From positions 33,608 to 97,607 of the forward strand of contig JANPHB010000209.1 in assembly GCA_031424235.1 (NCBI GenBank): 64,000 nt of DNA, read 5' to 3'. The translations under genes and the position numbers were made by a program. This stretch comes from Pirellula sp. (GTDB lineage: Bacteria > Planctomycetota > Planctomycetia > Pirellulales > Pirellulaceae). The stretch's first letter is position 1. Every line of letters begins with the position of its first letter. The notes beneath the pieces are model-generated. The model was not told the origin of the DNA and searched no databases. It was given only the letters and a program-made list of their open reading frames with translations. This document shows, piece by piece, positions 13,293 to 55,471 of this stretch.

Positions 13293-13940
13293 GTAGCAGG
13301 CACATTCCATGTGCCATCCGCCCATGAGGGCCGAAGGCTCGACACATCCTCTGCCGGTGCCGTAAGCACCGGACTTGCTATTCCCAAGGATTTCAAGGCC
13401 CGAAGAGGCTGTGGAAAAATGTAGGACGCCCTTTTTAGGGCGTCGAAATTGGCCGTTTTTTGCAGTAACGACGGCCTGAAAAGGCCGTCCTACGAATAAA
13501 TTCACAGTCTCGAAGGGCCCACACACTCGATCATGTGTCGCCCCTTCCGGCAACGCTTTGAAGTATTTTCGAGAATTGGGTAGCAGGTTTCGTGAGTGAT
13601 GCAATCGAATCGTCATTGAATGGTTCTTGAACTCAGATTTCTCACGAAATCTGCTACAAAAGATTGCAAAAATTGCTTCACAGCGTTGCCCCTCCGGGCT
13701 CGTCTCCCGATTGGTCTTCGCACCGTGGCTCATCAGCCTCATCTTTACCCACATCTTTCAACATGAAACTCCAATTCCCCGGGGTTTTCGTACTCGTACT
13801 CGTACTCGATCGGATGGACAATCGAGTACGAGTACCATTTCATTGAGTACGAGTACGAGTACGAAATCTTTCCAAAAATTTGGGAAAAGATGAGGCTTAT
13901 CAGCCACGGCTAGGGATATGTCGGCCTTTCAGGCCTAATT
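13293..13940. mobile_element. Multi-layer composite repeat region: REP scaffold with at least three inserted TIR-bounded units
   Basis: Units at 13406-13510 (CGAAG duplicated), 13551-13688 (9-bp near-duplication) and ~13723-13909 (enclosing a (GTACTC)n palindrome); GTAG REPs at 13293, 13421-13493 and 13580-13657. Confidence 0.75.
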
Positions 13941-13996
13941 TGCGCATCTTAAAAATGCTTAAGCGGGGATAAGCGAAAGCAATCGGCCGCTTGCTT

Positions 13997-15967
13997 TTAC
14001 TCATTCGTCTGGAGTACTGGCGGCATGGGGCACCCCAGTGCATCCGAGATAACTCGCAATAGCTCTAGCTCTCGCACTTCGACCTTTCCATCTGCGGCGA
14101 TGCAAGCGGAACACGCAGCTAACATCGAGCGTTTCATCGTGCCTTGAGAATGCTCCAAAATATTTAACGCTTCATCGAGTGTTTTCAGTATGCATTCCGC
14201 ACTTGGGCTCAATTGCAATCCCTTGGCTATGTTTGGCACCGCCGCTAGTCCTGCTGCAAACGCCTTTTCCACTGTGTTCGTTTCGTTACCCAATCTTGCT
14301 AAAGTGGACAATACCGTTTGGAAACTTTGCAACATCGATTGCGTTGTGGGAGCCGAAGCGACTCTGTTTTTGCGTTGCAAGCGGTCAGCCAGTCTCTTTG
14401 AAATGAATCTCTGGATCGCAAACTCAAAAATCGTCCACTTGCGATCTGCCTCGATCAGTGCACGCACGTTTTTGCGAAACGCGATGGCTTGATTCGGCGA
14501 CAATTGATGAAGCGATGGCAGTGCCAAACAAGCCATCGGTAGTCGCTGCTCGTCTGCCAATGAATCCACGTGCGACAGAACTCGATTGAGCTCGCTCATG
14601 ACGCGATCATCGGTCGACGTCGCGAGCATTTGAATCTGCTGACTTCGAACTGGATCGTCCGAGGGAGCCAAAAGAAGTGCGTAGACGATAGCAACCGCAC
14701 CGAGCGGGTCGCGTATGTCTTCTGTCAACAGATCGTCCATTTCCTCGACCATGTGTTGAGCATGTACGAAGTGTTCAGGACGAGGCTCACCGATATGATC
14801 GACAGCTTGCTGAGGGCTTTGTTCATGACTCGCAGCTCCTGCCACCGCCGCTTGATGCACGTCGGCAAACGAGGATCGAGCAAGTGACAAGGAGCGTGGA
14901 TCGATCATTTCGGCTTCCGAGTGCGCTACCTTGTTGGTTGTTTCAAACACGCCATCAAAACGAGGATCGATTCTCTTGATGCGAACCGGAAGCGCGGGAT
15001 GGGTTGCAAACAAGTGCGAAACGACTCCCTCACCGAAAAACATATGACTTGCCTCAGAGGCGTGGGGACTAGCAAGCTGTGATTTCTGTGCCCAACCTCC
15101 AATGCGTTTCAAGGCATCGCCGATCCCATTTGGATTGCGGGTAAACTGCACAGCGGACGCATCGGCCAAGAACTCACGCTGTCTCGATACAGCGGCCTTG
15201 ATGAAATTTGCAAAGAACACGCCAATGTAACCGATCGCGACCAGCGAACCGCCCACGGCAGCAAATGCGGCGACCAACGCGAGAGTCCCTTTGTTGTCTT
15301 CGCTATTACTGCTGCCAGATCGAATTCCGACCTCACCTAATATTCGCAATGTCCAATATCCAATCAAGGCGATCAGCAAGATACCATTCAGCATTCCCAT
15401 TAATCGCAAATTGAGCCGCATATCTCCGTTGAGAATGTGACTGAACTCATGTGCGATCACCCCTTGCAACTCCTCTCGTTTGAGAGTCATAATCGCTCCC
15501 TGAGTCACGCCAATGACTGCGTTTTGAGGGGTTGTTCCCGCAGCGAAGGCGTTGATCCCCATTTCTCGCGGCATCAAGTAGACCGGCGGCACGGGCGTTC
15601 CAGATGCCAAAGACATTTCTTCGACAACATTTAGCAAAATGCGTTCAGCGAGCACTCCCGTATTGGGCGGAATCCTGACACCACCCAACGCCAGTGCAAC
15701 TTGTTCTCCGTCGCTACCCAAAGACCAGATCTTGTACAAGCTGCCGATCAAGATGATCGCTGTCACAACCGTCGCAACACTTGTCAGTAAGATCGGATGC
15801 CATTCAAAAAACGAAATGGGGCGTTCCGAAGTTCGTGTTGCAGCAACAACTATTCCAAGAAGCGCAGCGTAAACCGAAACAATCACCATAACGACGGCGA
15901 TAATGAAGTAAAGAACGAGAAGTGAAGTCTTGCGCCGTGCGCGATCTTGATGCTCGAAAAAGTCCAT
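13997..15967 (-). CDS. M48 family (HtpX-like) zinc metalloprotease with C-terminal extension
   Basis: 'INAFAAG', HEXXH (HEFSH), 'SRQREFLADASAVQFTRNP', 'THP'; paired with lemA. Confidence 0.92.
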   Translation of the reverse strand: MDFFEHQDRARRKTSLLVLYFIIAVVMVIVSVYAALLGIVVAATRTSERPISFFEWHPILLTSVATVVTAIILIGSLYKIWSLGSDGEQVALALGGVRIPPNTGVLAERILLNVVEEMSLASGTPVPPVYLMPREMGINAFAAGTTPQNAVIGVTQGAIMTLKREELQGVIAHEFSHILNGDMRLNLRLMGMLNGILLIALIGYWTLRILGEVGIRSGSSNSEDNKGTLALVAAFAAVGGSLVAIGYIGVFFANFIKAAVSRQREFLADASAVQFTRNPNGIGDALKRIGGWAQKSQLASPHASEASHMFFGEGVVSHLFATHPALPVRIKRIDPRFDGVFETTNKVAHSEAEMIDPRSLSLARSSFADVHQAAVAGAASHEQSPQQAVDHIGEPRPEHFVHAQHMVEEMDDLLTEDIRDPLGAVAIVYALLLAPSDDPVRSQQIQMLATSTDDRVMSELNRVLSHVDSLADEQRLPMACLALPSLHQLSPNQAIAFRKNVRALIEADRKWTIFEFAIQRFISKRLADRLQRKNRVASAPTTQSMLQSFQTVLSTLARLGNETNTVEKAFAAGLAAVPNIAKGLQLSPSAECILKTLDEALNILEHSQGTMKRSMLAACSACIAADGKVEVRELELLRVISDALGCPMPPVLQTNE

Positions 15968-15979
15968 CGTTCTCTCCGC

Positions 15980-16582
15980 TTAGAATTGGACTTTAACAGC
16001 CTCTCGCTCTTGCGGAGCGCTGATTACCTCAAGCAACGAGGCTCGCTCAAACCGACCAAAGCCGGCTACCAGTGAGCCTGGGAAAACCTCGCATGCCGTA
16101 TTGTAATATGTGACAGCGTCGTTGAATGCTTGTCGCGAGTACGAGACCTTGTTTTCTGTGCTCGTCAGTTCTTCTTGAATGGCAAGCATATTCTGATTGG
16201 CTTTCAAATCGGGATACGCTTCGGCCAAACCAATAAACTTGGTCATCGTCCCTGCCAACGCCACTTCGGCCGTAGACAAGTTTTGCATCGACTGAGCGTC
16301 TCCCGGATTGGCTGCCGCTTGTTGGCCCGCCGACATCGCGGTATTTCTCGCTCGTATCACAGCTTCGAGAGTCTCTTTCTCATGCTTCATGTATCCCTTG
16401 GCCGTTTCCACCAAGTTCGGAATCAAGTCATAGCGACGCTTGAGCTGAACATCGATCTGGGCATAAGCGTTTTTGTATCGGTTCCTCATCGAAACCAAAT
16501 TATTGTATATCGAGACCAGATAGAACAAAAAGAGTACGCAAACACCAGCTGCAACCAGCAATCCAACAGTTAACCCGACCAT
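15980..16582 (-). CDS. lemA: LemA family protein
   Basis: TM anchor, 'YNNLV..RN', 'IDVQLKRRYDLIPNLVETAKGY..HE', 'EAYPDLKANQN'. Confidence 0.95.
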   Translation of the reverse strand: MVGLTVGLLVAAGVCVLFLFYLVSIYNNLVSMRNRYKNAYAQIDVQLKRRYDLIPNLVETAKGYMKHEKETLEAVIRARNTAMSAGQQAAANPGDAQSMQNLSTAEVALAGTMTKFIGLAEAYPDLKANQNMLAIQEELTSTENKVSYSRQAFNDAVTYYNTACEVFPGSLVAGFGRFERASLLEVISAPQEREAVKVQF

Positions 16583-16794
16583 CTTCAACCCCTTCGTTCT
16601 TTCTACAAGTAACGTACGTTCGACGAACTGTGGTTCGATGGACCAACAGTTCAATCGCAATGGTAGTCGATTGAAGGGCGATTGTCGAACAGGCTCCAGT
16701 TCATCCCAGATAGGCCTTCAGCCCTGGCTGGCATGAGTTTTAAAGGACAATTAGCCGTTGGGCGCTCGCCTTGTCATTACCCAAATCTCTTTGA

Positions 16795-16835
16795 CTTTGC
16801 TCCCTCGCCCCGTTTCGGGGAGAGGGGAGAAAATC
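16795..16835. repeat. CCCTC(T/G)CCCC...GGGGAGAGGG palindromic repeat
   Basis: ctccctcgccccgtttcggggagaggggag hairpin in the intergenic region. Confidence 0.6.
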
Positions 16836-16918
16836 GCAATGGTTTCGTTCCGTTTTTAGGGAATTTGATTTCGAGGTTGAATCGATTGGGGGGTAAAGAC
16901 AAGGCTAATGCCAACCAA

Positions 16919-17920
16919 TTAAATTCCAACCAGTGGCCAGACGCAACCTTCAAGAAACGGTTTGTGAAAGAGAATCGGCACGGGAATGAGCACCCAAGCT
17001 GCCAACCATGCTCGTCCGATTGACTTTGACCTAAGAAACGTCACTCGTTTCTCAATAGTCATGCCGATCGCTTGGATCGCGAAATACAACATTGGCAGTC
17101 CGAACCCGGCCTGTACCGGAACACTAATGGCGAGCTCATGGAGTAAACCTGAGAACAAAAAGGCTCCGGCGGTTGCTACGACTGAGGAATGTCCAACATT
17201 CTTGCAGTGCGCACGTAGCGGACGGTACACAGCGATCGAAGTCATCTCGGAAAAAGCTCGGTTCCATCGATACCCCCAAAAATCGGAAAGGGATTCCGAA
17301 AGCAAGGGCGCTCGAAATAAAGCCAAGCACTTCACGCCAAAAAAACGCCACATGCCAGTAACGAGATTAAAGAGCCCAAAGTGAACGAATAGACTCAGCC
17401 CGGTCAACAAACAAGCAGTCGTAAACCATAGCTTCCATGACTTAATAGCCAAATTCGGTTCGGCGCTGCTGTGCGCCATCGCCCAAGCTACACCGATGAA
17501 GACGGCGCCGAGCGCTATGCGGATCAAGCCTCGCACACAATATTGCCGCCAATCCGCCAGTTGGTTGCTAGGCAACCGATGGAAAAGCTCCGATCGCATT
17601 CCAAACCAGCCTACACAAAAACAGAGCCATTGACCGAATGTCAAAGTGTTATTTCCATCATTTCGGGACTCCATGTAAACGACGGATTTCATGGACCACA
17701 ATAACGCGACGATGATCAACAACATCCGCGTTCCTTGCGGTTCAGCTACACTCAGCCTTTCGACGAACAAAACGCAAACCGAAACGAATCCCCAAGCGAC
17801 TATTCTCGACAAAGGCTGTTGCTCGATAGCAGCTAGTCGAAACCCGACCAATGGTATCGTGCAGAGAAACACAACCATGCAAGCGAGTAGCCTGCCATCA
17901 TGAACACCGTAACCAATCAC
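16919..17920 (-). CDS. MBOAT-family (wax synthase-like) membrane O-acyltransferase
   Basis: 'APLLSESLSDFWGYRWN' and 'FLFSGLLHELAIS' (catalytic His). Probable GTG start overlaps the upstream TGA. Confidence 0.85.
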   Translation of the reverse strand: MIGYGVHDGRLLACMVVFLCTIPLVGFRLAAIEQQPLSRIVAWGFVSVCVLFVERLSVAEPQGTRMLLIIVALLWSMKSVVYMESRNDGNNTLTFGQWLCFCVGWFGMRSELFHRLPSNQLADWRQYCVRGLIRIALGAVFIGVAWAMAHSSAEPNLAIKSWKLWFTTACLLTGLSLFVHFGLFNLVTGMWRFFGVKCLALFRAPLLSESLSDFWGYRWNRAFSEMTSIAVYRPLRAHCKNVGHSSVVATAGAFLFSGLLHELAISVPVQAGFGLPMLYFAIQAIGMTIEKRVTFLRSKSIGRAWLAAWVLIPVPILFHKPFLEGCVWPLVGI

Positions 17921-18342
17921 ACAGTCGCTCCGGTTAGATTCGCAATTGCAGCCCATCCGTAAACCGCAACGAGTGCGATGAAAAGACAATCAAGCATTAT
18001 TTCGGCAACAAAAAAAATCGCACCTTTGGGCGCATCGCTGCGATCGAACCAAGTGAACTGGATAATGACTCGAACCAACCAATAGACCAAGATATAGGTC
18101 GTTAACGCTTTCGCTAGAAATGAATGATCGATTAAACTCTCAGGGGAGAGCATTGAGACCAATGCGAAACTCAAGTTCGTCATCCAGATGTAGCCCGCGT
18201 ACGTCCAAAATACTTGGCGTGTCAGCGGCCGAAGCTTCGACGTGTCCTCGCCCCACCTTAGGACTCTCGGTATCGCCAAGCTGGCGAAAACGAGGATCAA
18301 TTGCCCAAGTCCCGCCATAAAAATCATCCTCTCGAGCATCAT
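17917..18342 (-). CDS. Small 4-TM membrane protein, translationally coupled to the MBOAT gene
   Basis: AGGAGG RBS; four hydrophobic segments; GTGA overlap with the downstream gene. Confidence 0.75.
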   Translation of the reverse strand: MMLERMIFMAGLGQLILVFASLAIPRVLRWGEDTSKLRPLTRQVFWTYAGYIWMTNLSFALVSMLSPESLIDHSFLAKALTTYILVYWLVRVIIQFTWFDRSDAPKGAIFFVAEIMLDCLFIALVAVYGWAAIANLTGATV

Positions 18343-18420
18343 CAATTGCTCCTCCTATTGGAATTCACCGCAGCAATTTCCTAACCACAACAATAAATGC
18401 TGCGAATCCAAGAGGTTGCT

Positions 18421-19608
18421 TTACTGGTCGACGAGTACCGCCATGGGAGGTTCTTGTGCTTTCTTGCGGCGAAAGACAAAATAGAGTCCGACACCAGCAA
18501 GAGCCAACAAGAATACGCTGAAAACAGGGCGAACAGCAATCCAGGCGACGCTGATGGTGATGAGGGCAAGGATGCTTCCAAGGATAAAACCGATCAGCAT
18601 AGTCGCAAAGCCAACCATCTTCCCGAACAATGGGACAACATTTGCCAGCGCCTTGAGCGGCGCGGCAATCAGAGAAAAACCAACGCAAGCCAACACCCAG
18701 CCAACTATGCGCAAAATAGTTGCCAAGGCCGTATTTGAGAATCGCAACGAATCAAACATCTGAGCCGCGGTTCGCTCGCCGGTTTCGATGCTCTCGATCG
18801 TTTCACCGTTCTTGGTCTTAAACGGCTCGAATTCTTTTCCTTTCTGCTGCGAAAGCAAGCTGACCGTCGTCGGCTCCACGACTCGGAACTGAATTCTCAA
18901 GTCCCCTACCTCAGGCTCCATTTTTGCCTGTGTTCCGACACAGTAACGCAGGTAGCCACCATCCACTTTGAAATGACTTCGCTCGTCCTCTGCTAATTTA
19001 CTAAGAACGGTAGCTTGGTCAATCGCGACATCTGTCCACGCGTTGATTGCGCCGACCAAAGAAGTTCGCAAGTGAAATGCCCCCAGGGTAGCTTTGTCGG
19101 AAATCAGTGAAGTTGAAGCGAATTTCGGTTGGGGATTTTCGTGGCCATTGGGTTGTTCAAACGACTGACTATTGACACGATCACCGTGCCATTTTTTCTG
19201 ATACTCGTAAGTTGTAATGGTCTCTTTGCCGCCGCCAAGCTTGTCTCTCGTCCTACTCTCTTTCTTTTCGACCCACTGGAACATTTCCACTTTTCGCTCC
19301 AATCGCAGAACCTTTTTCCCGATATCAAATACACCATCCGACAGCATCTCATCGGTGGTAGCCATTCCCATCACATGCACGAGTCGGCTATCTAAATCCG
19401 CAGAAGGCTCAAATGGCGAAGGCGCTTCGGCGACCACTTTCTCAGCCTGAATCAGCCCCTGAGTTCGATGGATCGTTCGGTACTCGTTCCAAGTCATCAG
19501 GGCGACGGAGCCGGGAACCATGACTAAACCAATCAAAACACCCACGACAGAATTGACAAGGCGAGAGAAGAAGCCTTTGTGTTCAGTACGCGTGACTCTG
19601 TCAACCAT
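18421..19608 (-). CDS. TMEM43 (DUF1625) family protein
   Basis: N-terminal TM 'LMTWNEYR', 'RKVEMFQWVE', 'PEVGDLRIQF', C-terminal TMs 'WIAVRP'. Confidence 0.88.
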   Translation of the reverse strand: MVDRVTRTEHKGFFSRLVNSVVGVLIGLVMVPGSVALMTWNEYRTIHRTQGLIQAEKVVAEAPSPFEPSADLDSRLVHVMGMATTDEMLSDGVFDIGKKVLRLERKVEMFQWVEKKESRTRDKLGGGKETITTYEYQKKWHGDRVNSQSFEQPNGHENPQPKFASTSLISDKATLGAFHLRTSLVGAINAWTDVAIDQATVLSKLAEDERSHFKVDGGYLRYCVGTQAKMEPEVGDLRIQFRVVEPTTVSLLSQQKGKEFEPFKTKNGETIESIETGERTAAQMFDSLRFSNTALATILRIVGWVLACVGFSLIAAPLKALANVVPLFGKMVGFATMLIGFILGSILALITISVAWIAVRPVFSVFLLALAGVGLYFVFRRKKAQEPPMAVLVDQ

Positions 19609-19769
19609 GAAGCTCTGCCTGCAATTTTAGGAGTGAAATCGGGAAAACAACCGCTTCAAACATCTTAGCATGACGCTACGAGGAATTTAAGAACGGTTCA
19701 CAACGTCAAGAGAGCATAATGTGTACACTAAGCACATCGCCGCGTATTTTACCGGTTAATATGCCGGTG

Positions 19770-19980
19770 CGCGTTAGCCAAATGGCACTCACTTTGTTAG
19801 CGGAACGGCGCGAGCCGTCCGGTGAGTATCCTAGTAAATGACGCGAAACCGGCGGGCTTGCGCCCAATGGCACTCACTTTCGATTGGAACAGGCAAATTA
19901 CTGAGCCGCGGGCGCTAGCCCAGGTTTCCACGATCACTCGACATTCGTCGGGAAACGCGGTAACGACGTTCGGCTAATTT
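19770..19980. repeat. Cluster of ATGGCACTCACTTT / TAGCGGAACGGCGCGAGCCGTCCGG repeats
   Basis: ATGGCACTCACTTT occurs twice here and again near 36131; TAGCGGAACGGCGC(G/A)AGCCGTCCGG recurs near 39270. Confidence 0.65.
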
Positions 19981-20109
19981 GTTTATCTGGCCAAAAGACT
20001 GGTGATGACGTGCGTTGTTACGATTTTCGAATTTCCCAGGCAAGATCTTAATCGGTGAGTCGAATAAGCGATTACGCAGTTTCAAATAGAAATCAAAGGA
20101 GATGTCTCA

Positions 20110-20211
20110 ATGTTCGGAATCGGTTTTTTTGAGTTGCTCATTTTGCTTGTTGTTGGGAGTGGGATTCTTGGGGCCATCGGTTTCGCGCTTTTTATGGCTC
20201 TCAAAAAATAG
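20110..20211 (+). CDS. 33-aa small membrane protein with TatA-like N-terminus (not in ORF track)
   Basis: AAGGAG at 20096-20101, 8 nt before ATG; translates MFGIGFFELLILLVVGSGILGAIGFALFMALKK*. Confidence 0.7.
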   Translation: MFGIGFFELLILLVVGSGILGAIGFALFMALKK

Positions 20212-21339: not shown

Positions 21340-21393
21340 TTCATTATCCTAAATTCTAGTGGCAAGTTTGTGAGCACCGCTCCAAACATCCTT

Positions 21394-29706: not shown

Positions 29707-30440
29707 CACGAAGCGCAAGCTAGTGAAACGATCAGGCGAACAAGTGAAACCATCGGGAAACTCACTAGCTTACCTAGTCATGCCGAAGAAGCGTTGGGAC
29801 CTACAATCGATAAAAATTCCATAGTCGTGAAAGAACTCTCTTTTCACGTTGTTTTCTTGGTTGGGGACAGTTCAGAGCAAGGTAACTTTCGGCAAGAGGA
29901 GGCAGTCTCACTTTTTTGAGGAAGTGTTTTTAGCCGTGAAACGGCGACAGTTCGTAGCTGCGGGGCTCGCCCCGCAGACACCTTTAGTAATCGAATGCAG
30001 GAGCCGTGAAATGGCGCCACCACACAGTGGCGCCGTTTCACGGCTCTCGTATTCAACGTGCCTAGAAACCCTGGGGCAAGCCCCACGGCTACGAAGTGCC
30101 GCCGCTATCGCGGCTAAGAAACAAAGCGGTCGTCGCTTACCAGAAAATCGCAACAGTCGTGTCAGCCAGTTGTTGGGAATATCCGATGGCATGGGTTGGG
30201 ATGATTTGGAAGTGCGCGAGCTCAATACTGGCTCAGCTTACTTTGGACGGTAAAAAACGGCACTTCTCGGCGATCGCCACCATTTTTCCTATGCCTATGC
30301 GTGGAATCCCGCAGGCTTGTCCTGCGGATCGTTAGGTTTTTAGCTACGCACTGAACGCTCCGTCATTCGCTCGTGCCCCCGGATTTGCCGAAGGCAAAAC
30401 CGGGGACACGAGCGACAGTCGCGAAGAGAGGGTTTAGTAG
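29704..30440. repeat. Cluster of palindromic repeats between convergent genes
   Basis: TAGCACGAAGCGCAAGCTAGTG at 29704; GTAG doublet 29954-30092 enclosing a gagccgtgaaatggcgcca hairpin; gctcgtgccccgg...ccggggacacgagc at ~30369-30416. Confidence 0.7.
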
Positions 30441-36038: not shown

Positions 36039-36282
36039 TATTTTAGGCCACTTGTGCAAGAGAGCGGATGTGAGGTAATACCGCTAATCATATTCGATTT
36101 GGACTGAAATGTGGCGATAAGCAGGAACACATGGCACTCACTTTATTAGCGGCACGGCGCAAGCGGGCTTTCGGGTTCAGTCGTTTAACAGTCAGCCGTA
36201 GGCGTACTTCGTTTTTTGCCCTCGTTCCAGGGCTCAGCCTTGGAACGCACTGCTTCGATCCATTGTGTTCCCAGGCGGAGCC

Positions 36283-36411
36283 CAACGCGGTGAAGCATTG
36301 TGTAGCGAAACTTGTCAAGAGTTTCGGTCGTTAAAGCGATGCAGCCGAAAGTCTTGACGACTTTCGCTACAAAAGCCTCGTTTTAACAGCGAAAAATGCT
36401 TCACAGCGTTG
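36283..36411. mobile_element. 129-bp MITE-like element (TIR CAACGC(G/T)GTGAAGCATT) with a GTAG REP doublet
   Basis: 17-bp TIR with 1 mismatch; perfect 9-bp flanking duplication GGCGGAGCC (36274-82, 36412-20); inserted in a CCCAGGCGGAGCCTGGG palindrome. Confidence 0.85.
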
Positions 36412-36473
36412 GGCGGAGCCTGGGAGCGAGTTTAAAGATTTTGTCGAAGCAAGAACCAATCGCCTCGCGTTTG

Positions 36474-39231: not shown

Positions 39232-39306
39232 TTGAGAGATAGTAGCTAGCGACAAATGGCGATCACTTTGCTAGCGGAACGGCGCAAGCCGTCCGGTGAG
39301 TGACTT

Positions 39307-47200: not shown

Positions 47201-50200
47201 ATGAATCCATTCCCTAAGAAAATCGCCCTATCCGCCTCTGACTCTCCGTGGGCTTTTCGCCCTATGTGGGAGCAGTGTGAGCGTCGACTGGCATTGTCGG
47301 CAATGCCTTGGATGCCCTGGGATATCGGCCCACAGCAAGCGGTCGCTCCCACTATAGTCGACCTTCCCCAACCGGACGATCTCGTTTCGCATCCCTCGCA
47401 TTTGCAACCGATCGACACCAACGTAGCGCCAGCAATTGAACAGCATTTGGCAGAAGCTCATTCGCAATCCGGTTGGAACCAGGTCCACTCGCAATACGGC
47501 TTGACCGGCAAGGGGCAAACTGTTGCCGTGATCGATAGCGGCATTGCGTTTGATCACGTGGCCTTAGGCAAAGGCTATGGACCTGGCTACAAAGTCGTCG
47601 GCGGCTGGGACTTTGCCGAAAAAGACGCAAGACCCTACGACGATGCACCGGGCGGCTTCCACGGAACTCACGTTTCAGGAATCATCGGAGCCAATGATGG
47701 GACGCATTTGGGCGTCGCACCCGACGTCGACTTGGTCGCTCTACGTGTCTTTACCGATGCAGGCAAAGGGGACATGGGGTGGACTGAAAGTGCGCTCAAG
47801 TGGGTGCATGAGAATCGCAACAGTTTTGCCAATCCAATCACCACCGTCAATCTTTCGCTTGGCTCCGCTTGGAACTCGAACACGGTTCCATCCTGGGGAA
47901 CACTCGAAGATGAACTTGCTCAGTTGCAACGGGACGGCATTGTTGTGGTCGCGTCTGCTGGCAACTCGTTTCAACAATACAAAACGCCGGGCCTATCCTA
48001 CCCGGCCGCAAGCCCATACGTAATTCCCGTTTCGAGCGTCGATGCCAACGGACAACTCAGCGACTTCAGTCAACGCGATGCGCGATCGATTGCCGCTCCT
48101 GGTCGTTCGATAGAAAGCACCGTGCCTGACTATTTCTACGGCAAAGATGGAATCGCAAACGACTGGTCTACTGCGAGCGGCACGAGCATGGCGGCACCCT
48201 ACATCGCAGGCGCAAGCGTACTTGTCCGCGAAGCCATGGAAATGGTTGGGATGCAAAACATCTCCTCGCAATCGATCTACGAGCATCTCAAGTCGACAGC
48301 CAATTCCGTCTGGGATAGCGTCACCAAACAAAACTACCAATCGCTCGATTTGGATCGGGCCATCGAAAGCCTGCTCCCGGTCGATACCGTTGGTGACACG
48401 CTTGCAACGGGTATGAATTCCCAAATCCAAAGCACTTGGCAAACCGACGGTTGGATCAATTCACTCTCCGATCAAGATGTCTATCGGCTCACACCCAATC
48501 AAAGCGGCACTGTATCCGTACAGCTTGCGAGCGAATATGTAGACGATGCGGTATTCAAGCTTTTTCGGGGTGGCCAAGAGACAGCACTGCACGCCAGTCA
48601 AGGCAAATTGTCCTTTGCGGTTTCGGCCGGTGAAAACGTTGGTCTCAGCATAGCGGACCTCGACTCAATTGGCTCCTATCATTTGAATTGGAGCTTCGCG
48701 GCCAGTTCGAACAATGGAGGCGGAAGCGGTGGCGGTACGAACGGTGGTGGCGCTAACACCCTCATCCCAAGTAAAATTGTAGACCTTGGTTCGGTCGACT
48801 TGCTTGAGCAGACACTTAGCGGTTCATCTAGGTATAAGCTCACAGCAGAACACACCGGTATCATGAGTGTCGTGGTCGACGCTGGTACACAGACGACTGG
48901 TTCGCAGTCGACGGGCGCATTGCAGGTCTTTCGGCCAGGGATTGCCAATGGCACACTGTCCGACTCGCTTGTCGAAAACAACCAATGGCGGATCGATTTC
49001 AATGCGACACAGGGGCAAAGCGTTGAGTTCGTGCTACCTGGCACGGCCAGTCGAAACGTGCACTTGGTCAATTTGCTCCAGCAGCAAGGCACCGCATTGA
49101 CCATTTACGGGACCGACGCCGCAGACGCGGTCAAACTGGACCTGAGCAATGGCCTGGTAGCCAACGTCGCTGGGATTTCGTACCAACTTGATAACACAAT
49201 CAAAAGTGTCGTGGTCGATGCGAATCAAAACAATGACACGCTCACGCTGATTGGCTCCAAAAGGGCGGAGACAGTCGAATTGCGTCCGGGACTGACGACG
49301 TTCGAGAACACTCAACTGACAGTCCGAGCCACTGGCTTTGAGAATGTTCAATTTCAGGGCGGAGGTGGCCCCGATCGAGCTTATCTTTACGACGCGGCCA
49401 CCGATGATCGTTTGAGCATTTGGCCGAACAAGGCTGAGTTGACCGGTGTTGGGTATTCGTTCAAAGTTAGTCAAGTCGACCGTATTTTTGTGCATGCCAA
49501 TCAAGGTGGTGACGACCAAGCTTCTATGTTCGATTCGGTCGGCGATGACACATTGAGTGTGCGCCCGCAATTTTCTAGTTTGGCAGGGACCGGTTATTTC
49601 AATTACGTGGCCGGCTTCGAACGCGTCGTTGCTTACTCCAATGCTGGCGGAGTTGACCGCGCGGCGATCTACGATTCGGTTGGCAACGATCTCTTTAGCA
49701 CGAGCGGCGAAGTAACCTCGATTGTTGGTTCGGGGTTTTCCGCTTTCGCGCGTGGCTTTGAAAAGGTCGAAGCGTTCTCGAATGCGGGTGGAGTAGACCG
49801 GGCCAGCATCTATGCGCCAGTTGGCGGCAAATTGACGTCGGGGGCTGACTATGTTGGAATGCAAGACGCCACCCGATCTAGTATTGCGAGAAATTTCGAA
49901 CGGGTCGAAACCTTCCTTCCGGGGCAAACGGTCGCAACGCCTATTCGCTCAAATGCCTTAGGGACCTTGAGTGAAGATTCGGCACACTCGATTGAGCCGA
50001 TTGCTATTGATCCGATTGCTTCTGTGCCGATGGCAATGACGTCTACGGTGACGAACGTTTCTGCCAATAAATGCGAAGCGGTTTTTGATAAGATGGATTG
50101 GATTGCCAATCTTGTGGAAAAAGAAATCAGCCAACTGCGAGTCGGCCCCAATGAGGCCGCGATACTGGCGATCGATACGCAATCCGCTAATACGGACGGA

Positions 50201-50284
50201 AATGCGAATGGGCTCGATTTGACGTGGATCGATCGGGATTTGGAGCGAGCAGCTCTCGACGAAATTTTCGCAAAACACGCGTGA
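47201..50284 (+). CDS. Secreted S8 (subtilisin-like) serine protease with accessory domains and repeats
   Basis: Planctomycete-type leader 'EQCERRLALSA'; triad 'VIDSG', 'HGTHVSG', 'GTSMAAP'; oxyanion 'ASAGNS'. Confidence 0.92.
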   Translation: MNPFPKKIALSASDSPWAFRPMWEQCERRLALSAMPWMPWDIGPQQAVAPTIVDLPQPDDLVSHPSHLQPIDTNVAPAIEQHLAEAHSQSGWNQVHSQYGLTGKGQTVAVIDSGIAFDHVALGKGYGPGYKVVGGWDFAEKDARPYDDAPGGFHGTHVSGIIGANDGTHLGVAPDVDLVALRVFTDAGKGDMGWTESALKWVHENRNSFANPITTVNLSLGSAWNSNTVPSWGTLEDELAQLQRDGIVVVASAGNSFQQYKTPGLSYPAASPYVIPVSSVDANGQLSDFSQRDARSIAAPGRSIESTVPDYFYGKDGIANDWSTASGTSMAAPYIAGASVLVREAMEMVGMQNISSQSIYEHLKSTANSVWDSVTKQNYQSLDLDRAIESLLPVDTVGDTLATGMNSQIQSTWQTDGWINSLSDQDVYRLTPNQSGTVSVQLASEYVDDAVFKLFRGGQETALHASQGKLSFAVSAGENVGLSIADLDSIGSYHLNWSFAASSNNGGGSGGGTNGGGANTLIPSKIVDLGSVDLLEQTLSGSSRYKLTAEHTGIMSVVVDAGTQTTGSQSTGALQVFRPGIANGTLSDSLVENNQWRIDFNATQGQSVEFVLPGTASRNVHLVNLLQQQGTALTIYGTDAADAVKLDLSNGLVANVAGISYQLDNTIKSVVVDANQNNDTLTLIGSKRAETVELRPGLTTFENTQLTVRATGFENVQFQGGGGPDRAYLYDAATDDRLSIWPNKAELTGVGYSFKVSQVDRIFVHANQGGDDQASMFDSVGDDTLSVRPQFSSLAGTGYFNYVAGFERVVAYSNAGGVDRAAIYDSVGNDLFSTSGEVTSIVGSGFSAFARGFEKVEAFSNAGGVDRASIYAPVGGKLTSGADYVGMQDATRSSIARNFERVETFLPGQTVATPIRSNALGTLSEDSAHSIEPIAIDPIASVPMAMTSTVTNVSANKCEAVFDKMDWIANLVEKEISQLRVGPNEAAILAIDTQSANTDGNANGLDLTWIDRDLERAALDEIFAKHA

Positions 50285-50321
50285 CTTCCTTCGCCTGCCT
50301 TGAGCTGATGGCTTTTCATTT

Positions 50322-50490
50322 CGTTTAACGGTCCACCGTAGGCGTACCGAAGAGCATTGGAGTACGCCTCCGGCTGACTGTTAAAAACTGCAAAACGACT
50401 AAATCAAAAGACTCTTCGGTGGCTGGTTTCGTGCGAAACCAGATGCAATACAATGGTTTGTGAATGCCGGTTTCTCACGAAACCAGCTAC
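50322..50490. repeat. Family B palindrome plus GTAG REP doublet (50419-50490)
   Basis: gtggctggtttcgtgcgaaacc ... ggtttctcacgaaaccagctac; same REP type as 8332 and 13580. Confidence 0.75.
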
Positions 50491-50591
50491 ACAGGATGAC
50501 AAGAACGGATTGCGAAAGAAGCACTGTTCAAGTCGAATATACTTCGAACGAGTGATTGTGATGTTTTGTCACTATCTCTTCAAAACGTTTC

Positions 50592-53500
50592 ATGCTTCCA
50601 TTCGTGTCGGTGGGTTGTTCAGTGCAAATCGAAGACTACACTCTGGGTCGGCCGCTTACTAGCTCGGAACGCTTCCAAGAATACTACGCGACCAAGAGGG
50701 GCAAGCCTTTTCGGCTCATTCGATGGCTGAACCCGGAGTCGGGAACGGTTGAATGCGTAAATCGTGCGGTTCTCGTCTCCCACCAGAATGTCCTTTCGAT
50801 TTCAATCGTTGAGAACCACAGCGATGCCCTGATTACCTCCACCCCGTACGTTCATCAACAGCATTTTGATGTTCGACAGCCTAATGCCAATGAGCTACCG
50901 ATGATTCTGCTCAAGGTCGCACAAGCGCTCAGTGCATCGCATCAAATCGGGATCGCTCACGGCGCATTGCTTCCGTCGAAAGTCTATTGGACGGATTCCA
51001 GCTCGTTTGCTCCCGTTGCGACGAACACCAACGTGATGATCGATCTACTAGATGGCGAACTCTCCCGAGCATCTTTGGATGCTCGCATCGGTGCCTTCTC
51101 GCTTGCTGAGGATGTCTGTGCATTCGGGACGTTTCTGCAGACTATTTGTAACAGAACTCCTGCACTCATGAATTCGATAAGCCCTTTCCAATCGCTGATC
51201 GTGCGTATGGTGCATTCCGATTGGCTGGAACGCCCAACTATGGATGAAGTGGCTGACCGGTTGGCAGAGTCCATTCGTCCACCTACTTCTATTTCTTTCG
51301 TATCTTCGGGCGTATCCAATTCGAAACTCATCGGATCCGATTCTAGTTTTGAGGATTCTGCGAACGATGCGACTCAAGCAATTTCCGCAAACGAAGCTGA
51401 GTCGATAGCCAAAGAACGGATGGTTCCAGAGCACTTGCCGGAGATAGGTCGCTTTGTCATCGAACGCACGCTAGGCGAAGGGGGCATGGGAGCTGTCTAC
51501 CTAGGCCGAGATCGTGGTAGCGACGAACGGGTCGCCATCAAAGTCCTTTCCCAGCGGATGGCCAATGATGAAAAGGCGTCGCGTCGATTTGCTAAAGAAG
51601 CAAGATTGATGTCGACAGTCGACCACCCTGCGATCGCCCGGCTGATCGAATTCAATCGATCCGGAGATACCACTTATTTGGCCATGGAATACGTTCCGGG
51701 CGGCAGCCTCGCAGATTTCACGCGAACGCACCAAAAGCTAAACGAAACCTTGGTTGTTAGCGCTGTTGCGGACGCAGCTCGCGGTCTCAATGTCGCCCAC
51801 CAAATGGGAATGGTGCATCGCGATATCAAACCTGCCAATCTGCTACTGAGTGCCCGCGGCGAGCGTTCCTTTCAATCAGGCGAACTCGATCAGTCTGAAA
51901 GCGAGCCGTTGATCAAAGTCGCTGACTTCGGTTTGGCCAAGAACTTCGATCCCGCCGAGTCCATGGCGATGACTCAAACGGGCATGATCATGGGCACTCC
52001 CTATTACATGGCTCCCGAGCAATGCAGGGGAGAGGAGGTTGGACCGGCAACCGATGTGTATGCTCTCGGTATCACCCTGTTTCAATGCTTATCCGGTCGG
52101 CTTCCCTATCAAGGACAAACGCCGGTTGACATCTTTCGACTGCACTGTGATGCTCCCATCCCCAAGTTGCGATCCGTCGCTGAAACAGTCAGCGATGCAA
52201 TCCAAGAAGTTATCGAAAAATGTTTGGCCAAGAATCCTAATGCTCGTTACCAAAATGCGGGCGAGCTGTTTCAAGACTTAGAGGGATTGCTGACTGGTAC
52301 CAGGACGTCCATTCAATCGCACCCGGCCGTACCCACTCCAAACGCTGCGGGTATTCTCCGTTACCAATTCCAGTGGAAATTGCGTTCCTCAGCGGAATCG
52401 CTTTGGCCATATCTTTCGAACACAGATCGCGTCAATCAAGCCGTTGGCTTGCCCGCTGTTAAGTACAAGACCTTTCAAGATCCTAAGTTGGGAATGAGGC
52501 GAATCGCGACGGTGCGAGCGATGGGCATGACCATGGAGTGGGAGGAGCATCCCTTTGAATGGATCGAAGGTCGACGGCTGAGCGTACTGCGACAATTTCC
52601 CAGCGGTCCGTTTCACTGGTTTACCAACGTCGTTGAGCTCAACCCACAGTCGGACGGAGGAACACTCGTCGTTCAAACGTTGGAGATGATCCCACGCAAT
52701 TTCATGGGCAAGGTGTTTGCCAAATTTCAAATCGGCAATAAATCGGAACGCAACTTCGGACGCGTTTACGAAAAGATCGACGAGTACTTGCAATCCAACT
52801 CGAGCAAAAGTGTCGTCAATGCGTTTGCGGCGACCAAGCTAATGACTCGGGAACAGAAGCGTCGACTGACCGAACGTTTTGATCGAATTCGAGCCAGCAC
52901 TCAGGCCATCGATCCGAAAGTGGTTGATACGCTCGAACAATATCTCGAGTTCGCGAGCGATTTGGACGTTGCTCGATTACGCCCCATTGCGTTAGCGGAA
53001 CGCTTTGAGCTCAAGCCGGAGGAGGTCGTCGAAGTCTGTTTGCTGGCGGCTCGCGAGGGGGCCCTGATCTTGCTTTGGGATATCCTTTGTCCGACTTGTC
53101 GCATTCCATCTGACGTCAAAGAGACCCTCAAGGGACTTGCCGATCATGGTCATTGTGAAGCCTGCAACGCAGACTATGAACTCGATTTCGCAAAGAGTAT
53201 CGAACTGATCTTTCGGGCGCATCCGGAAATACGCGTATCCGAAACGCGAACGTATTGTGTTGGCGGTCCAGCCTTCTCGTCGCATGTCGCAGCGCAATTG
53301 AGGATTCAAGCGGACGAACGCCTCAACGTCCAGTTGCGAATGAGCGATGGGCAATATCGACTTCGGGGCCCTCAGCTGCCCTACGTCATCGATTTTCGGG
53401 TCGCCGCCAATGGGCGAGTCGGACGGTGGGATATCGATCTGGCTCGACCGGCCGCCAAACAGGATGTACCAACATTGCGAAGTGGCGAACAAGTCCTCTC

Positions 53501-54152
53501 GATTTTGAATTCGCTTTCGGATCCAAGACAGATACGCATTGAACGCTTGGCATCGCGGGCCGACGCGCTGACGGCAGCTGACGCAGCTCGACTTCCAGCC
53601 TTTCGGGAGTGGTTTCCCGACGAAGTGCTATCGCCGGGGCAAATGGTTAGCCTTACCACCGTAACGCTACTAGGTTGTCAGATCGCAAATGCGGTTCAGC
53701 TCTACGCGTCGCTTTCCGATCAGGCCGCTTGTGCGCAGATACTCAAGCATTTGCAAAGTATGGCAAGCATTGTCGCAAGCAACAGCGGTTGCGTGATCAA
53801 GACAATGAACGACGGCTTGAACACGGTCTTTCCGAGCACCAGCAATGCGGCTGCGGCAGCAACGCAGATAGCCAAGGCATCGGCTGAGTGGGGAGTCTCG
53901 ATTCGCCAGGCCATCCATCAAGGTTCCGCGATCGTAGCGACGATTAACGATCGCCTGGACTATTTTGGCGAGACACCGCAGTATTTGGAGGAATTGCTTC
54001 GCAGCTCGCAACCGAACGAACTTTGGATGTCGGATCAGAGCTGGAATGATTCGAGCGTGTCCTCAACTTTGCGAGTTGACTGGAATGTCCAAATGGAGCC
54101 GTCGTTATCGAACTGGCCGAAATGGAACATTGTGCGTGCACTTAAGAACTAG
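50592..54152 (+). CDS. Ser/Thr kinase fusion: pseudokinase + kinase + SRPBCC-like + DUF5939-like + degenerate class III cyclase
   Basis: Intact kinase 'GEGGMGAVY/VAIK/HRDIKPAN/DFG/GTPYYMAPE'; 'LSNTDRVNQAVGL...WEEHPFEW'; 'CPTC...HCEAC...YC.GGP'; cyclase-like 'VIKTMNDG...IHQG...LDYFG'. Confidence 0.88.
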   Translation: MLPFVSVGCSVQIEDYTLGRPLTSSERFQEYYATKRGKPFRLIRWLNPESGTVECVNRAVLVSHQNVLSISIVENHSDALITSTPYVHQQHFDVRQPNANELPMILLKVAQALSASHQIGIAHGALLPSKVYWTDSSSFAPVATNTNVMIDLLDGELSRASLDARIGAFSLAEDVCAFGTFLQTICNRTPALMNSISPFQSLIVRMVHSDWLERPTMDEVADRLAESIRPPTSISFVSSGVSNSKLIGSDSSFEDSANDATQAISANEAESIAKERMVPEHLPEIGRFVIERTLGEGGMGAVYLGRDRGSDERVAIKVLSQRMANDEKASRRFAKEARLMSTVDHPAIARLIEFNRSGDTTYLAMEYVPGGSLADFTRTHQKLNETLVVSAVADAARGLNVAHQMGMVHRDIKPANLLLSARGERSFQSGELDQSESEPLIKVADFGLAKNFDPAESMAMTQTGMIMGTPYYMAPEQCRGEEVGPATDVYALGITLFQCLSGRLPYQGQTPVDIFRLHCDAPIPKLRSVAETVSDAIQEVIEKCLAKNPNARYQNAGELFQDLEGLLTGTRTSIQSHPAVPTPNAAGILRYQFQWKLRSSAESLWPYLSNTDRVNQAVGLPAVKYKTFQDPKLGMRRIATVRAMGMTMEWEEHPFEWIEGRRLSVLRQFPSGPFHWFTNVVELNPQSDGGTLVVQTLEMIPRNFMGKVFAKFQIGNKSERNFGRVYEKIDEYLQSNSSKSVVNAFAATKLMTREQKRRLTERFDRIRASTQAIDPKVVDTLEQYLEFASDLDVARLRPIALAERFELKPEEVVEVCLLAAREGALILLWDILCPTCRIPSDVKETLKGLADHGHCEACNADYELDFAKSIELIFRAHPEIRVSETRTYCVGGPAFSSHVAAQLRIQADERLNVQLRMSDGQYRLRGPQLPYVIDFRVAANGRVGRWDIDLARPAAKQDVPTLRSGEQVLSILNSLSDPRQIRIERLASRADALTAADAARLPAFREWFPDEVLSPGQMVSLTTVTLLGCQIANAVQLYASLSDQAACAQILKHLQSMASIVASNSGCVIKTMNDGLNTVFPSTSNAAAAATQIAKASAEWGVSIRQAIHQGSAIVATINDRLDYFGETPQYLEELLRSSQPNELWMSDQSWNDSSVSSTLRVDWNVQMEPSLSNWPKWNIVRALKN

Positions 54153-54228
54153 TGTGATTTGTTTAATGGCAATACCGTTCAATTATTTGTTTAACAGTCA
54201 GCCGAAGGCGTACTGGGTGAGCCGAGGC

Positions 54229-54573
54229 TCAATTCAATCCCATGACACCGTTTAGGTCTTTTCCCACAACGAGTAATATTAGCGCAATGCTGACGAACGG
54301 CAAAAGAAGCGGTAGCGGCGCCAGCGAATAGCGGCGAAGAAAAAAGAGACTCCACGAACCAGCAATTGCCGCCATGCAGGCTAACGGAAGAGTCGCAAGC
54401 GAGCACAGCATCATTGCTGCCTTAGTGCGGAATTGCTGATTGGGATCTTGAACGATGCACACTGACACGATACCGAATAGCAATCCAGAAACGGACAAAA
54501 GAAGGACAACGCCATAGACCAGCGAAACAAGTCCGAGAAATACTTGATAAACTCGTAGAGATGTCAATTGCAT
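54229..54573 (-). CDS. Small 3-TM hypothetical protein
   Basis: 114 aa, three hydrophobic helices; tightly packed behind two same-strand ORFs. Confidence 0.6.
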   Translation of the reverse strand: MQLTSLRVYQVFLGLVSLVYGVVLLLSVSGLLFGIVSVCIVQDPNQQFRTKAAMMLCSLATLPLACMAAIAGSWSLFFLRRYSLAPLPLLLPFVSIALILLVVGKDLNGVMGLN

Positions 54574-54582
54574 CGCAAGTAC

Positions 54583-54960
54583 CTAGGTTGTAGTGGCATC
54601 GACATGCGCGTGCAAAATGTCAACATATAGACCTGTGCTCAGCGTACTATTTCCAGACACGATGCCTTCGACGTGGATTTTCGGATGGTCAGAAGCTGGT
54701 CCGATTACAAAAAACAGCCGACTACTCCGGGCATCGAGTCGATCGTGAGGCGAAAAAACAAGCCTAAGTCGATGGACGGTTCCTTCGATTGCCGCCACAA
54801 TCTGGAACCACTCATCGCGAGGTCGCCAATCTTGGAACTTCCATTTTTCCAAGGTAAGTGAAATCGGCCGGCTTTCGAGTTGACAGAGATCGCGTGTGAT
54901 CTCAATCGGTTTTCGGTCGCCATTGCAGAGCATGATTTCAATTTCGGCTGCCGTTAACAT
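54583..54960 (-). CDS. Hypothetical protein
   Basis: 125 aa; 9-15 bp spacing to its neighbours; GAAGAGAG before the ATG. Confidence 0.55.
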   Translation of the reverse strand: MLTAAEIEIMLCNGDRKPIEITRDLCQLESRPISLTLEKWKFQDWRPRDEWFQIVAAIEGTVHRLRLVFSPHDRLDARSSRLFFVIGPASDHPKIHVEGIVSGNSTLSTGLYVDILHAHVDATTT

Positions 54961-54975
54961 CTCTCTTCGCCGTTC

Positions 54976-55359
54976 TCAAATTTGATCAAAATACATACGC
55001 ACCATCAATTCACCATTCGAGCCATGAGTGTCTAGAGTCGTCCCTAGGTCCAACCATAGCCTTAGCTTGGTCGCACCCGGATCATCTAAGTTAACACCAA
55101 CCCAGGAATAGGTCCCTTGCAGTTCATGAGTTTGTCCGCTCGGCTCCTGCACGTTTAGTGTGAATTCAAATGCGACGCCGGTTCGTACCAAGATCGCCAT
55201 GTTCGGATCGTCGTTTCTGGGGCGTGCACCCGTTAGCCACTGTGGTTCGGATACTACCCGAAACGTCTCCAGTCGTGAACCAGGGACTTGTTGCTGGAGC
55301 ATCCGCTCAACCTCAGTTCGAATCTCGGCAAATGGTTCATCTGCAAGCCACTTAAGCAT
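54976..55359 (-). CDS. Hypothetical soluble protein; 5' end overlaps a MITE terminus
   Basis: Globular-looking sequence from 'DEPFAEIR'. The track's N-terminal residues are translated MITE/REP DNA. Confidence 0.65.
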   Translation of the reverse strand: MLKWLADEPFAEIRTEVERMLQQQVPGSRLETFRVVSEPQWLTGARPRNDDPNMAILVRTGVAFEFTLNVQEPSGQTHELQGTYSWVGVNLDDPGATKLRLWLDLGTTLDTHGSNGELMVRMYFDQI

Positions 55360-55471
55360 TTTCTCCTGCAAAAACAGGCTTTGTGTAGCGAAAGTCGTTA
55401 AGACTTTCGGCTGCATCGTCTAACGACCGAAACTCTTGACGAGTTTCGCTACATAATGCTTCAAAGTGTTG
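55344..55471. mobile_element. 128-bp inverted, partly degenerate copy of the 36283-36411 MITE-like element
   Basis: Its reverse complement aligns end to end with the 36.3 kb copy, including the GTAGCGAAACTCGTCAAGAGTTTCG doublet. No TSD is discernible. Confidence 0.8.

Follow-up and report, generated by a model that had tools for sequence, protein, structure and literature searches.

Introduction

Several described systems bear on a group of short mobile elements found in a 64-kb stretch of DNA from Pirellula sp., a freshwater-sediment planctomycete (64,000 nucleotides of contig JANPHB010000209.1, hereafter the window), where transposable elements of the miniature inverted-repeat kind (MITEs) enclose inverted pairs of repetitive extragenic palindromic (REP) sequences. 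Within the IS4 family of insertion sequences (ISs), IS10/Tn10, IS50/Tn5 and the IS4Sa group make 9-bp target duplications and encode a single long DDE_Tnp_1 transposase bearing a Y-2-R-3-E-6-K signature; the target of IS10 is symmetric (NGCTNAGCN). In the Bacillus cereus group, the MIC231 cassettes and IS231-derived MITEs consist of IS4-family ends around variable non-IS passengers, and are mobilised in trans. ISs of other families are known to target REPs, among them IS1397 (of the IS3 family), ISKpn1 and ISPpu9/10, whose duplications are short. Lastly, REP sequences that begin with GTAG occur as inverted pairs (REPINs) in populations of free copies, alongside REP-associated tyrosine transposase (RAYT) genes that have REP arrays (Bertels and Rainey 2011, PMC3116915; Nunvar 2010, PMC2817692; Di Nocera 2013, PMC3733652). 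The last of these papers, through its reference 12, gives REP-targeting insertion sequences as known.

The elements described here resemble each of these systems and depart from each. We consider it highly probable that those in the window are non-autonomous MITEs, deletion derivatives of an IS4-family IS of about 1.6 kb with a DDE transposase of some 490 amino acids (aa). This cognate IS has the single long DDE_Tnp_1 transposase and Y-2-R-3-E-6-K signature of the IS4 members named above, together with short terminal repeats that begin with CA, a 9-bp duplication and a symmetric target. It differs in that its transposase is only about 25% identical to annotated members, its target is the apex of G+C-rich hairpins (CCNNNNNGG) and its 17-bp ends do not vary even among copies whose transposases are only 50% identical. 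As in MIC231, IS4-family ends enclose non-IS passenger DNA, presumably mobilised in trans in the case of the MITEs, but the passengers of MIC231 are protein-coding genes whereas the MITEs here carry REP doublets of 50-80 bp and other palindromes, of at least 17 types, in elements mostly of 130-170 bp. Inverted GTAG REP pairs, free copies and RAYT genes with REP arrays are shared with the REPIN-RAYT systems; classical REPINs, however, have neither outer terminal repeats nor a target duplication, while many of those here lie inside a DDE-type MITE. Finally, preferred insertion into REP palindromes, at or near the loop, recalls the REP-targeting ISs, with the differences that the IS4-family element here makes 9-bp duplications and that its MITEs also carry REPs. 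Each ingredient (IS4 9-bp duplications, IS4-derived MITEs or cassettes, REP-targeting ISs and REPIN-RAYT systems) is already known, and their nesting is unusual but explainable. The searchable literature yielded no account of this IS or of MITEs whose REPIN cargo is interchangeable, and the sources searched held no ISfinder-style name for it.

Two intact elements and a truncated copy

The 17-mer CAACGCTGTGAAGCATT has five matches in the window at up to three mismatches, against 0.26 expected. Four of them pair inversely, at 13551-13688 and 36283-36411, and the fifth is a single end. The two paired loci, called here the 13.5- and 36-kb elements, are bona fide MITEs with terminal repeats of 17-18 bp; their parts are listed below, the left and right inverted repeats of the cognate IS being abbreviated IRL and IRR.

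13551-13567 (+), 13672-13688 (-), 36283-36299 (+), 36395-36411 (-) and 55455-55471 (-): matches to CAACGCTGTGAAGCATT at up to three mismatches
36283-36411 (-): intact MITE, 129 bp, the IS left end at the high coordinate
36283-36299: its IRR-type end
36302-36370: its REP doublet cargo
36371-36394: its remnant of the IS left arm
36395-36411: its IRL
36274-36282 (unstranded): left copy of its target duplication, GGCGGAGCC, identical to the right copy
36412-36420 (unstranded): right copy of its target duplication, GGCGGAGCC, a perfect 9-bp repeat
36225-36430 (unstranded): its target REP pair, GTTCCAGGGCTCAGCCTTGGAAC followed by GTTCCCAGG-CGGAG-CCTGGGAGC, the MITE interrupting the second hairpin at its apex
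13551-13688 (unstranded): older MITE, 138 bp, with ends at 13551-13567 (two mismatches) and 13672-13688 (one mismatch)
13542-13550 (unstranded): left copy of its target duplication, CCCTTCCGG, matching the right copy at 8 of 9 positions
13689-13697 (unstranded): right copy of its target duplication, CCCCTCCGG, with one position different from the left copy

In the 36-kb element, positions 1-43 of a profile of the IS left end align by nhmmer to 36411 down to 36371 (E 2e-5), and the DNA fold has an energy of -40.7 kcal/mol (z -8.3). Its REPs follow the layout GTAG-CGAAACTC-GTCAA-GAGTTTCG, as do those of the 55-kb copy described below, and GTAGCGAAACTCGTCAAGAGTTTCG, present as an inverted doublet, has four matches in these two copies where none is expected. 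The cargo of the 13.5-kb element (fold z -4.7) is a GTAG...GTGA-loop REP doublet at 13580-13657, of which the left REP is partly decayed; doublets of this GTAGCAGGTTTCGTGAG type, at 13580/13657, 8332/8402 and 50419/50490, give six matches against 0.12 expected. All the elements and doublets of the window fold as long DNA hairpins, with z values from -4.7 to -8.9. Both MITEs split hairpins, TCCCAGG-CGGAG-CCTGGGA at 36 kb and GCCCC-TTCC-GGGC at 13.5 kb, where the reconstructed target GTCGCCCCTTCCGGGCTCG is the apex of a GCCCC-NNNN-GGGC hairpin. Neither a DDE nor a Y1 transposase is encoded anywhere in the 64-kb window, and Rfam has no family matching the elements.

The first-pass annotation, made from the letters of the window, had already reported the 9-bp flanking duplications of these two elements, their position inside REP-like palindromes, the doublet common to the 36- and 55-kb copies, the recurrence of the 13.5-kb cargo type within other ends at 8.3 kb and without ends at 50.4 kb, and the lack of a transposase of either class, and all of this was borne out. 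It had also claimed that terminal repeats are shared by three loci. This is so at 13.5 and 36 kb; at 55 kb only the right end is real, the supposed left repeat being the N-terminus of a gene.

55360-55471 (-): truncated MITE, with a real terminal repeat at 55455-55471, a REP doublet at 55385-55452 and an IS-left-arm remnant containing AGGAG at 55360-55384
54976-55359 (-): conserved 127-aa gene, starting with ATGCTTAAGTGGCTTG

The supposed repeat at 55344-55359, which matches the end sequence at 12 of 17 positions, is the reverse complement of ATGCTTAAGTGGCTTG, the N-terminal coding sequence M-L-K-W-L, and a hidden Markov model of the IS ends detected no terminal repeat there. The flanks of the 55-kb copy show no target duplication. 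The open reading frame (ORF) in question, 54976-55416(-), belongs to a conserved family with 183 homologs; since their alignments begin at about query residue 20 and the homologs begin M-L-x-W-L, the true start is the ATG at 55359-55357 on the minus strand. The MITE spacer lies directly upstream of this start, with its AGGAG 4 nt upstream of the ATG. The real end of the copy reads ...AATGCTTCAC..., and an intact MITE end read outward is AAAATGCTTCAC, thus including an outward-facing ATG. The fusion of MITE and gene could stem from a deletion through the shared ATGCTT, and the MITE remnant may act as the translation-initiation region of the gene.

Comparison with close genomes, as the first-pass annotation had proposed, revealed presence/absence differences in both directions. 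The 36-kb MITE is absent at the orthologous site in relatives (loci L117-L123, flanking proteins 86-91% identical), and the relative at 86% has a type-A MITE, between tRNA-synthetase and DUF676 genes, that is missing from the window. Since each lineage has a private MITE, both gained copies after their split. No clean empty site was obtained, because the target REPs are also lineage-specific, and the contigs of the source metagenomes held no empty 36-kb site; they contain the 36-kb junctions, at high repeat depth, and many more copies of the cargo REP.

Related elements in the Pirellulales

One genome of each species was scanned for end pairs with a spacing of 88-118 nt, corresponding to a search window of 114-144 bp, which found at least 116 loci. 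About 108 are real, nearly all of them from Pirellulales: Rhodopirellula, Stieleria, Novipirellula, Rubripirellula and many metagenome-assembled genomes (MAGs). Chance matches in unrelated phyla numbered about six, some eight having been predicted beforehand from the specificity of the pattern, and the 14 single matches found on scanning viral contigs with the end sequence are likewise consistent with chance. The end positions that the search pattern left free (8 and 15-18) are 86-97% conserved, and where position 7 or 14 varies, both ends of the same element agree.

Target duplications could be scored in 114 elements. The 9-bp flanks are perfect repeats in 48, differ by at most one mismatch in 72 and by at most two in 85. 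Duplication extends over exactly 9 bp: lengths of 8 and 10 bp give essentially no signal, and flank identity per position is about 0.8 within the 9 bp and about 0.2 outside. The target consensus is the palindrome CCYGWCRGG, the symmetric CCNNNNNGG target; since the variable central bases are duplicated as well, these repeats are the true footprint of a staggered cut. A reconstructed empty site is typically the tip of a small G+C-rich hairpin, such as GCGACCCC-NNNN-GGGGTCGC or GCCCC-NNNN-GGGGC. To our knowledge, HUH transposition of the IS200/IS605 kind makes no target duplications.

Metagenomes were scanned with a single end, which returned 120 loci and imposed no spacing. The MITEs in this unbiased sample are 103-495 bp long, and those at the upper end of the range stack several different palindromes. 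Over the genome and metagenome scans, MITE lengths have modes near 132, 142-152 and 161-166 bp. The genome scan had shown a peak at 131-134 bp, but a constraint on length was dropped in view of this spread, the peak being partly an artefact of the 114-144-bp search window.

Rubripirellula obstinata (about 5880-6007 of locus L052; 3854-4060 of L086) has in addition an end-like motif, CAGCGCTG(G/C)GAAGCAT(T/A)GTGGCAAC, preceded by GGCAACACAAACTG. It forms direct repeats about 187 bp apart around a GTAGGCCGTAGCGAGCC... palindrome, and may be a related repeat of different architecture.

The cognate insertion sequence

Among the metagenome loci are at least 12 full-length elements in which the same ends stand 1583-1630 bp apart, flanked by 9-bp target duplications of the same type. 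Five duplications are perfect (CCCTTCAGG, CCCGAAGGG, CGAAAGTGG, CCCAATGGG and CCCAACGGG), the last of them flanking a 1218-bp deletion derivative (L253). Each full IS copy has one intact ORF of 481-496 aa. Scores with Pfam DDE_Tnp_1 (PF01609) are 63 and 50 bits, where the cutoff is 23; among NCBIfam models NF033592 (IS4) matches best, and matches to IS1634 and IS701 are weaker. The 12 intact transposases are 50-82% identical to one another, yet FDGSR, CGDAGF and Y-x2-R-x3-E-x6-K are invariant, the signature region reading Y.MRW..E.E.RG.K in all 12 copies. We take a Y-2-R-3-E-6-K signature around the catalytic E to be what defines the IS4 family. A tblastn search of plasmids gave only genes about 25% identical, annotated as IS4 family. 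The transposase family has more than 2100 homologs, most of them on contigs of about 1.6-2 kb, as expected of a collapsed repeat.

The IS is ordered as IRL, a subterminal ..GGAAAAAC.GGGGTTTCG.. motif, a 5' leader, the ORF, and a stop codon 0-2 nt from IRR. The leader contains an inverted repeat, GCCAGATTCC...GGAATCTGGC, whose pairing spans the ribosome-binding site (AAAGGAA) and which abuts the start codon, and this arrangement is conserved (positions 80-145 of L145 and 12 other copies). The repeat encloses an inner ACTGAA-ACAC-TTCAGT hairpin. The fold-back looks like a device for translational control of the transposase.

The MITEs can be aligned to the IS at both extremities. Their spacer is homologous to IS left-arm positions of about 18-45, and the other side is IRR plus a few A/T bases. 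The MITEs retain IRR and, at the opposite end, IRL followed by 25-45 nt of IS left-end sequence. The DNA in between is palindromic and foreign to the IS, and no MITE examined contains IS-internal or transposase sequence. The general layout is one end, 0-5 nt, palindromic cargo, a spacer of 20-45 nt and the other end. At least two lineages of left arm exist, one with a GGAAAAC motif and one lacking it that reaches about position 60, while type-B elements keep only some 13 nt; each lineage bears several unrelated cargo types. Terminal repeats, a fixed 9-bp duplication, small non-coding size, a cognate autonomous element and presence/absence polymorphism together identify these elements as MITEs.

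Interchangeable palindromic interiors

Clustering sorted the MITE interiors into 31 groups. At least 17 represent real, separate types, nearly all of them REP doublets. The types comprise several GTAG-hairpin REP families, a (G)TAGCGG...GGGC-GCGA-GCCC doublet, long hairpins of the CGTTTAAC type, TTAGCCG types and others; in Rhodopirellula sp. SM50 and Stieleria the TAGCGG family supplies the cargo more often than any other. Two or more types coexist in several genomes, including R. maiorica and five MAGs. A typical cargo is an inverted pair of REPs, each a GTAG followed by a hairpin with a 7-9-bp stem, with about 25 nt between them. GTAG hairpins are strongly enriched in these genomes, the window having 16 against one in shuffled sequence. 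With an inverted REP pair, a short spacer and a population of free copies, this cargo shares these properties with REPINs.

A free doublet of MAG VAR_17 shares 87-92% identity with embedded ones, and the embedded copies vary over the same range. Type A is embedded in the lineage of the window and free in R. obstinata, and the CGTTTAAC family shows the reverse. Some interiors are composite: a 299-bp element with a perfect duplication (L083, 7646-7944) contains two different REPIN types, and elements in L022 and L067 contain tandemly multiplied REPs. Of 57 GTAG doublets, 18 are free, the copy at 50419-50490 of the window among them, and in an ungapped test their similarity to the end sequence did not exceed that of random positions. 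A degenerate end seen by eye in R. obstinata (L041) had suggested that free REPINs are decayed MITEs, but as a general explanation this was dropped, the 18 free doublets being at random level.

REP hairpins as insertion sites

REP hairpins receive insertions of both the MITEs and the IS, and some of these REPs are of kinds found beside RAYT/Y1 genes. At 36 kb the MITE splits a hairpin that belongs with CCCAGGC...GCCTGGG (non-GTAG) REPs; in L028, Rhodopirellula islandica (L126) and strain SH139 (L127), arrays of these REPs lie on either side of a gene for a 178-aa RAYT. The gene in L028 was found by tblastn with E. coli RayT, and the JGI name of the protein is 'REP element-mobilizing transposase RayT'; a regular-expression search of the locus ORFs for RAYT motifs found nothing. 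In L262-L266 the 3' end of a Y1_Tnp gene has a GCCCC-TTCC-GGGGC hairpin that contains a full IS with a perfect CCTTCCGGG duplication, and the 13.5-kb MITE splits the same kind of hairpin as the IS in L262. A link between the GTAG families and RAYTs would rest on the published finding that Rhodopirellula baltica has GTAG REPs as well as many RAYTs (PMC3733652).

The reading frame of that Y1_Tnp gene (IS200-like/RAYT; L262-L266, 3412-5494) now enters IRL, ending …RPFRATL*.

Origin and spread of the elements

The findings suggest the following scheme. The transposase of a full-length IS copy elsewhere would move the MITEs in trans, cutting at the CA termini and inserting them with a 9-bp stagger at symmetric hairpin-apex targets. 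The MITE interior is occupied by the host's own palindromic repeats, mostly REPINs of families resident in that genome, which may enter this neutral interior by their own, presumably RAYT-driven, mobility. The DDE enzyme would then spread the embedded REPINs further, so that the two are co-amplified, and REP hairpins would serve as landing pads for both IS and MITEs. Entry of REPINs is favoured because nested or tandem REPs occur in elements with intact duplications, unrelated cargo is found on one arm lineage, and free and embedded copies belong to a shared population.

A number of observations weigh against all or part of this scheme. The transposase scores 99 bits with NF033592, below the cutoff of 115, and so does not pass the curated IS4 model; the IS is accordingly either a divergent member of the IS4 family or a sister group. 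A search of the PDB with the transposase sequence gave no match. Inspection of solo ends and recurrent ORFs, and a scan for inverted repeats with target duplications, found no full-length IS in the window or in about 1 Mb of named-genome loci, and the metagenomes that hold the present genome show only IS-like fragments, 80-90% identical to the leader and transposase gene. The IS contigs are metagenomic, and neither cluster names nor neighbouring genes gave a host, so we infer rather than observe that IS and MITEs reside together in one genome. Left-arm breakpoints vary among MITE groups, a pattern that fits repeated independent births with capture of cargo as well as it fits later invasion. 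Lastly, the DNA examined yielded no RAYT with GTAG cargo families on its flanks.

The alternative that survives best is that the cargo was captured as filler at the birth of each MITE subfamily, these arising independently from the IS and abundant hairpin-forming REP DNA being copied into the deletion junction during abortive gap repair or internal deletion, and that REPINs never enter existing MITEs. We regard this as less probable than entry, though with a substantial chance of being right: no IS-internal DNA remains in any MITE, the left arms differ in extent by group as described above, and L253 has the 1218-bp deletion derivative with its perfect duplication. The GGAAAAC arm, however, carries such unrelated cargo as GTAGCG, GTAGCCGAATTC, CGTTTAAC and TAGCGG; nested or tandemly multiplied REPs are found in elements whose duplications are still perfect; and free and embedded REPINs of one genome form a single sequence population.

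A second possibility is that the palindromic interior is itself under selection. An element of about 130 bp is shorter than the persistence length of DNA, and a hairpin or cruciform might aid synapsis of its ends or recruit a bending or wrapping protein, in which case only derivatives with palindromic filler would transpose efficiently. Nearly every MITE interior is indeed strongly palindromic, whole elements fold as one long hairpin with their ends paired (over the range of z values given for the window), and unrelated palindrome families occupy the same position. Against this, REP palindromes are in any case the most common short mobile DNA that these genomes contain, and the lengths in unbiased sampling obey no strict rule of size or geometry; we think the idea unlikely.

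That the shared ends are merely conserved outer flanks of REPINs moved by RAYT, an HUH tyrosine transposase, with no DDE enzyme involved, is scarcely credible and was rejected, for although GTAG REP doublets are the commonest interior and RAYTs are abundant in planctomycetes (PMC3733652), the same ends bound a DDE transposase gene and also enclose unrelated non-GTAG palindromes, the exact 9-bp duplications include variable central bases, and free REPINs show no trace of the ends.

Descent of the MITEs from the IS by deletion remains our preferred explanation, and the reading of the first-pass annotation withstood each of the three grounds for refutation that it had named. A lack of target duplications at most copies was one of these, and 72 of the 114 scorable elements have them with at most one mismatch; the predicted diversity of cargo across and within genomes exists; and the IS that it supposed is there, with the same ends, duplication and target and a DDE_Tnp_1 transposase bearing the IS4 signature. 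Two of its proposals need amendment. The 'one chassis' is more accurately a set of deletion derivatives from a single IS, among which at least two left-arm lineages occur. Of the proposal that REPINs and MITEs colonise each other, one half stands as observed, since MITEs and IS land in REP hairpins; the entry of REPINs into MITEs is suggested by nested and tandemly amplified REPs inside elements with intact duplications and by the free REPIN populations, with capture at birth a substantial alternative.

Other repeats and genes in the window

The window has a G+C content of about 51% and is crowded with other palindromic repeat families. Two features carry doublets related to the 13.5-kb cargo.

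8305-8427 (unstranded): separate MITE-like element, 123 bp, with other ends, TTTGAAGTTGCAC, at 8306-8318 and 8415-8427, and a related GTAG/GTGA-loop doublet at 8332-8402
50419-50490 (unstranded): free REPIN, an inverted GTAG/GTGA-loop doublet with no trace of terminal repeats

The 8.3-kb element is flanked by the 9-bp repeat ACGCGCAAG (8296-8304 and 8428-8436) and sits inside a palindrome, GCACGACGCGCAA...TTGCGCGTCGTGC; no other copy of its end type was found in 1.75 Mb of fetched planctomycete DNA. Two more free GTAG REP doublets, of other families, lie at 13421-13493 and 29954-30092 (GTAGGACGCCC...GGGCGTC and GTAGCTGCGGGGC...GCCCCGCAG), the former 58 bp away from the 13.5-kb MITE.

A long hairpin repeat, TCGTTTAACAGTCAGCCGTAGGCGTACT with its inverted arm (28-bp stems), is present in six copies (36180, 39305, 41313, 46009, 50320 and 54186). 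The CGTTTAAC family, which is MITE cargo in R. obstinata, is related to it and occurs free in the window. The palindromic repeat TTCGGGAGGGCGAGGCTCCTGCCGAGCC ... GGCTCGGCAGGAGCCTCGCCCTCCCGAA has four copies (21393, 28353, 41067 and 44468), and CAAATGGCACTCACTTTGTTAGCGGAACGGCGCGAGCCGTCCGGTGAGT recurs at 19779-19880, 36128-36176 and 39253-39301. At 19.8 kb the 15-mer AATGGCACTCACTTT is repeated after a truncated TAGCGG-type doublet, and at 13786-13866 runs of the hexamer GTACTC/GAGTAC form a palindrome whose 32-nt arms are 88% complementary.

Adjacent ORFs of 397 and 504 aa at 9799-12520, neither with a Pfam match, have in common a 273-nt segment (10702-10974 and 11954-12226) at 74% identity and are probably tandem paralogues. 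The 3' part of a tRNA-Glu gene at 60655-60727 overlaps the end of an ORF (60690-62222, minus strand) for a tyrosine integrase of 510 aa that has Phage_integrase and SAM-like domains, and the Rfam int-alpA RNA matches at 62002-62070 on the same strand. The region 60655-63103 is probably the edge of an integrated element that extends to the end of the window.

Implications

The mobility of REPINs has so far largely been deduced from sequence populations. The chimeras described here, in which the same REPIN exists both free and within a DDE-mobilised MITE, leave a 9-bp footprint for one route only, so that two modes of spread become separable. The elements account for much of the dense palindromic clutter of planctomycete intergenic regions, and the IS4-like element behind them is apparently unnamed and very widespread. 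On the practical side, these repeats cause assembly breaks and spurious ORF calls in such genomes.

A wider reading, possible but to be held only tentatively, is that Pirellulales REPINs spread in two ways, by their own RAYT and by hitch-hiking in IS4-type MITEs, possibly between genomes, while REPs provide landing sites for the IS and the palindrome may enable synapsis of the MITE ends. If this is true, two classes of selfish DNA would be mutually dependent and not merely nested.

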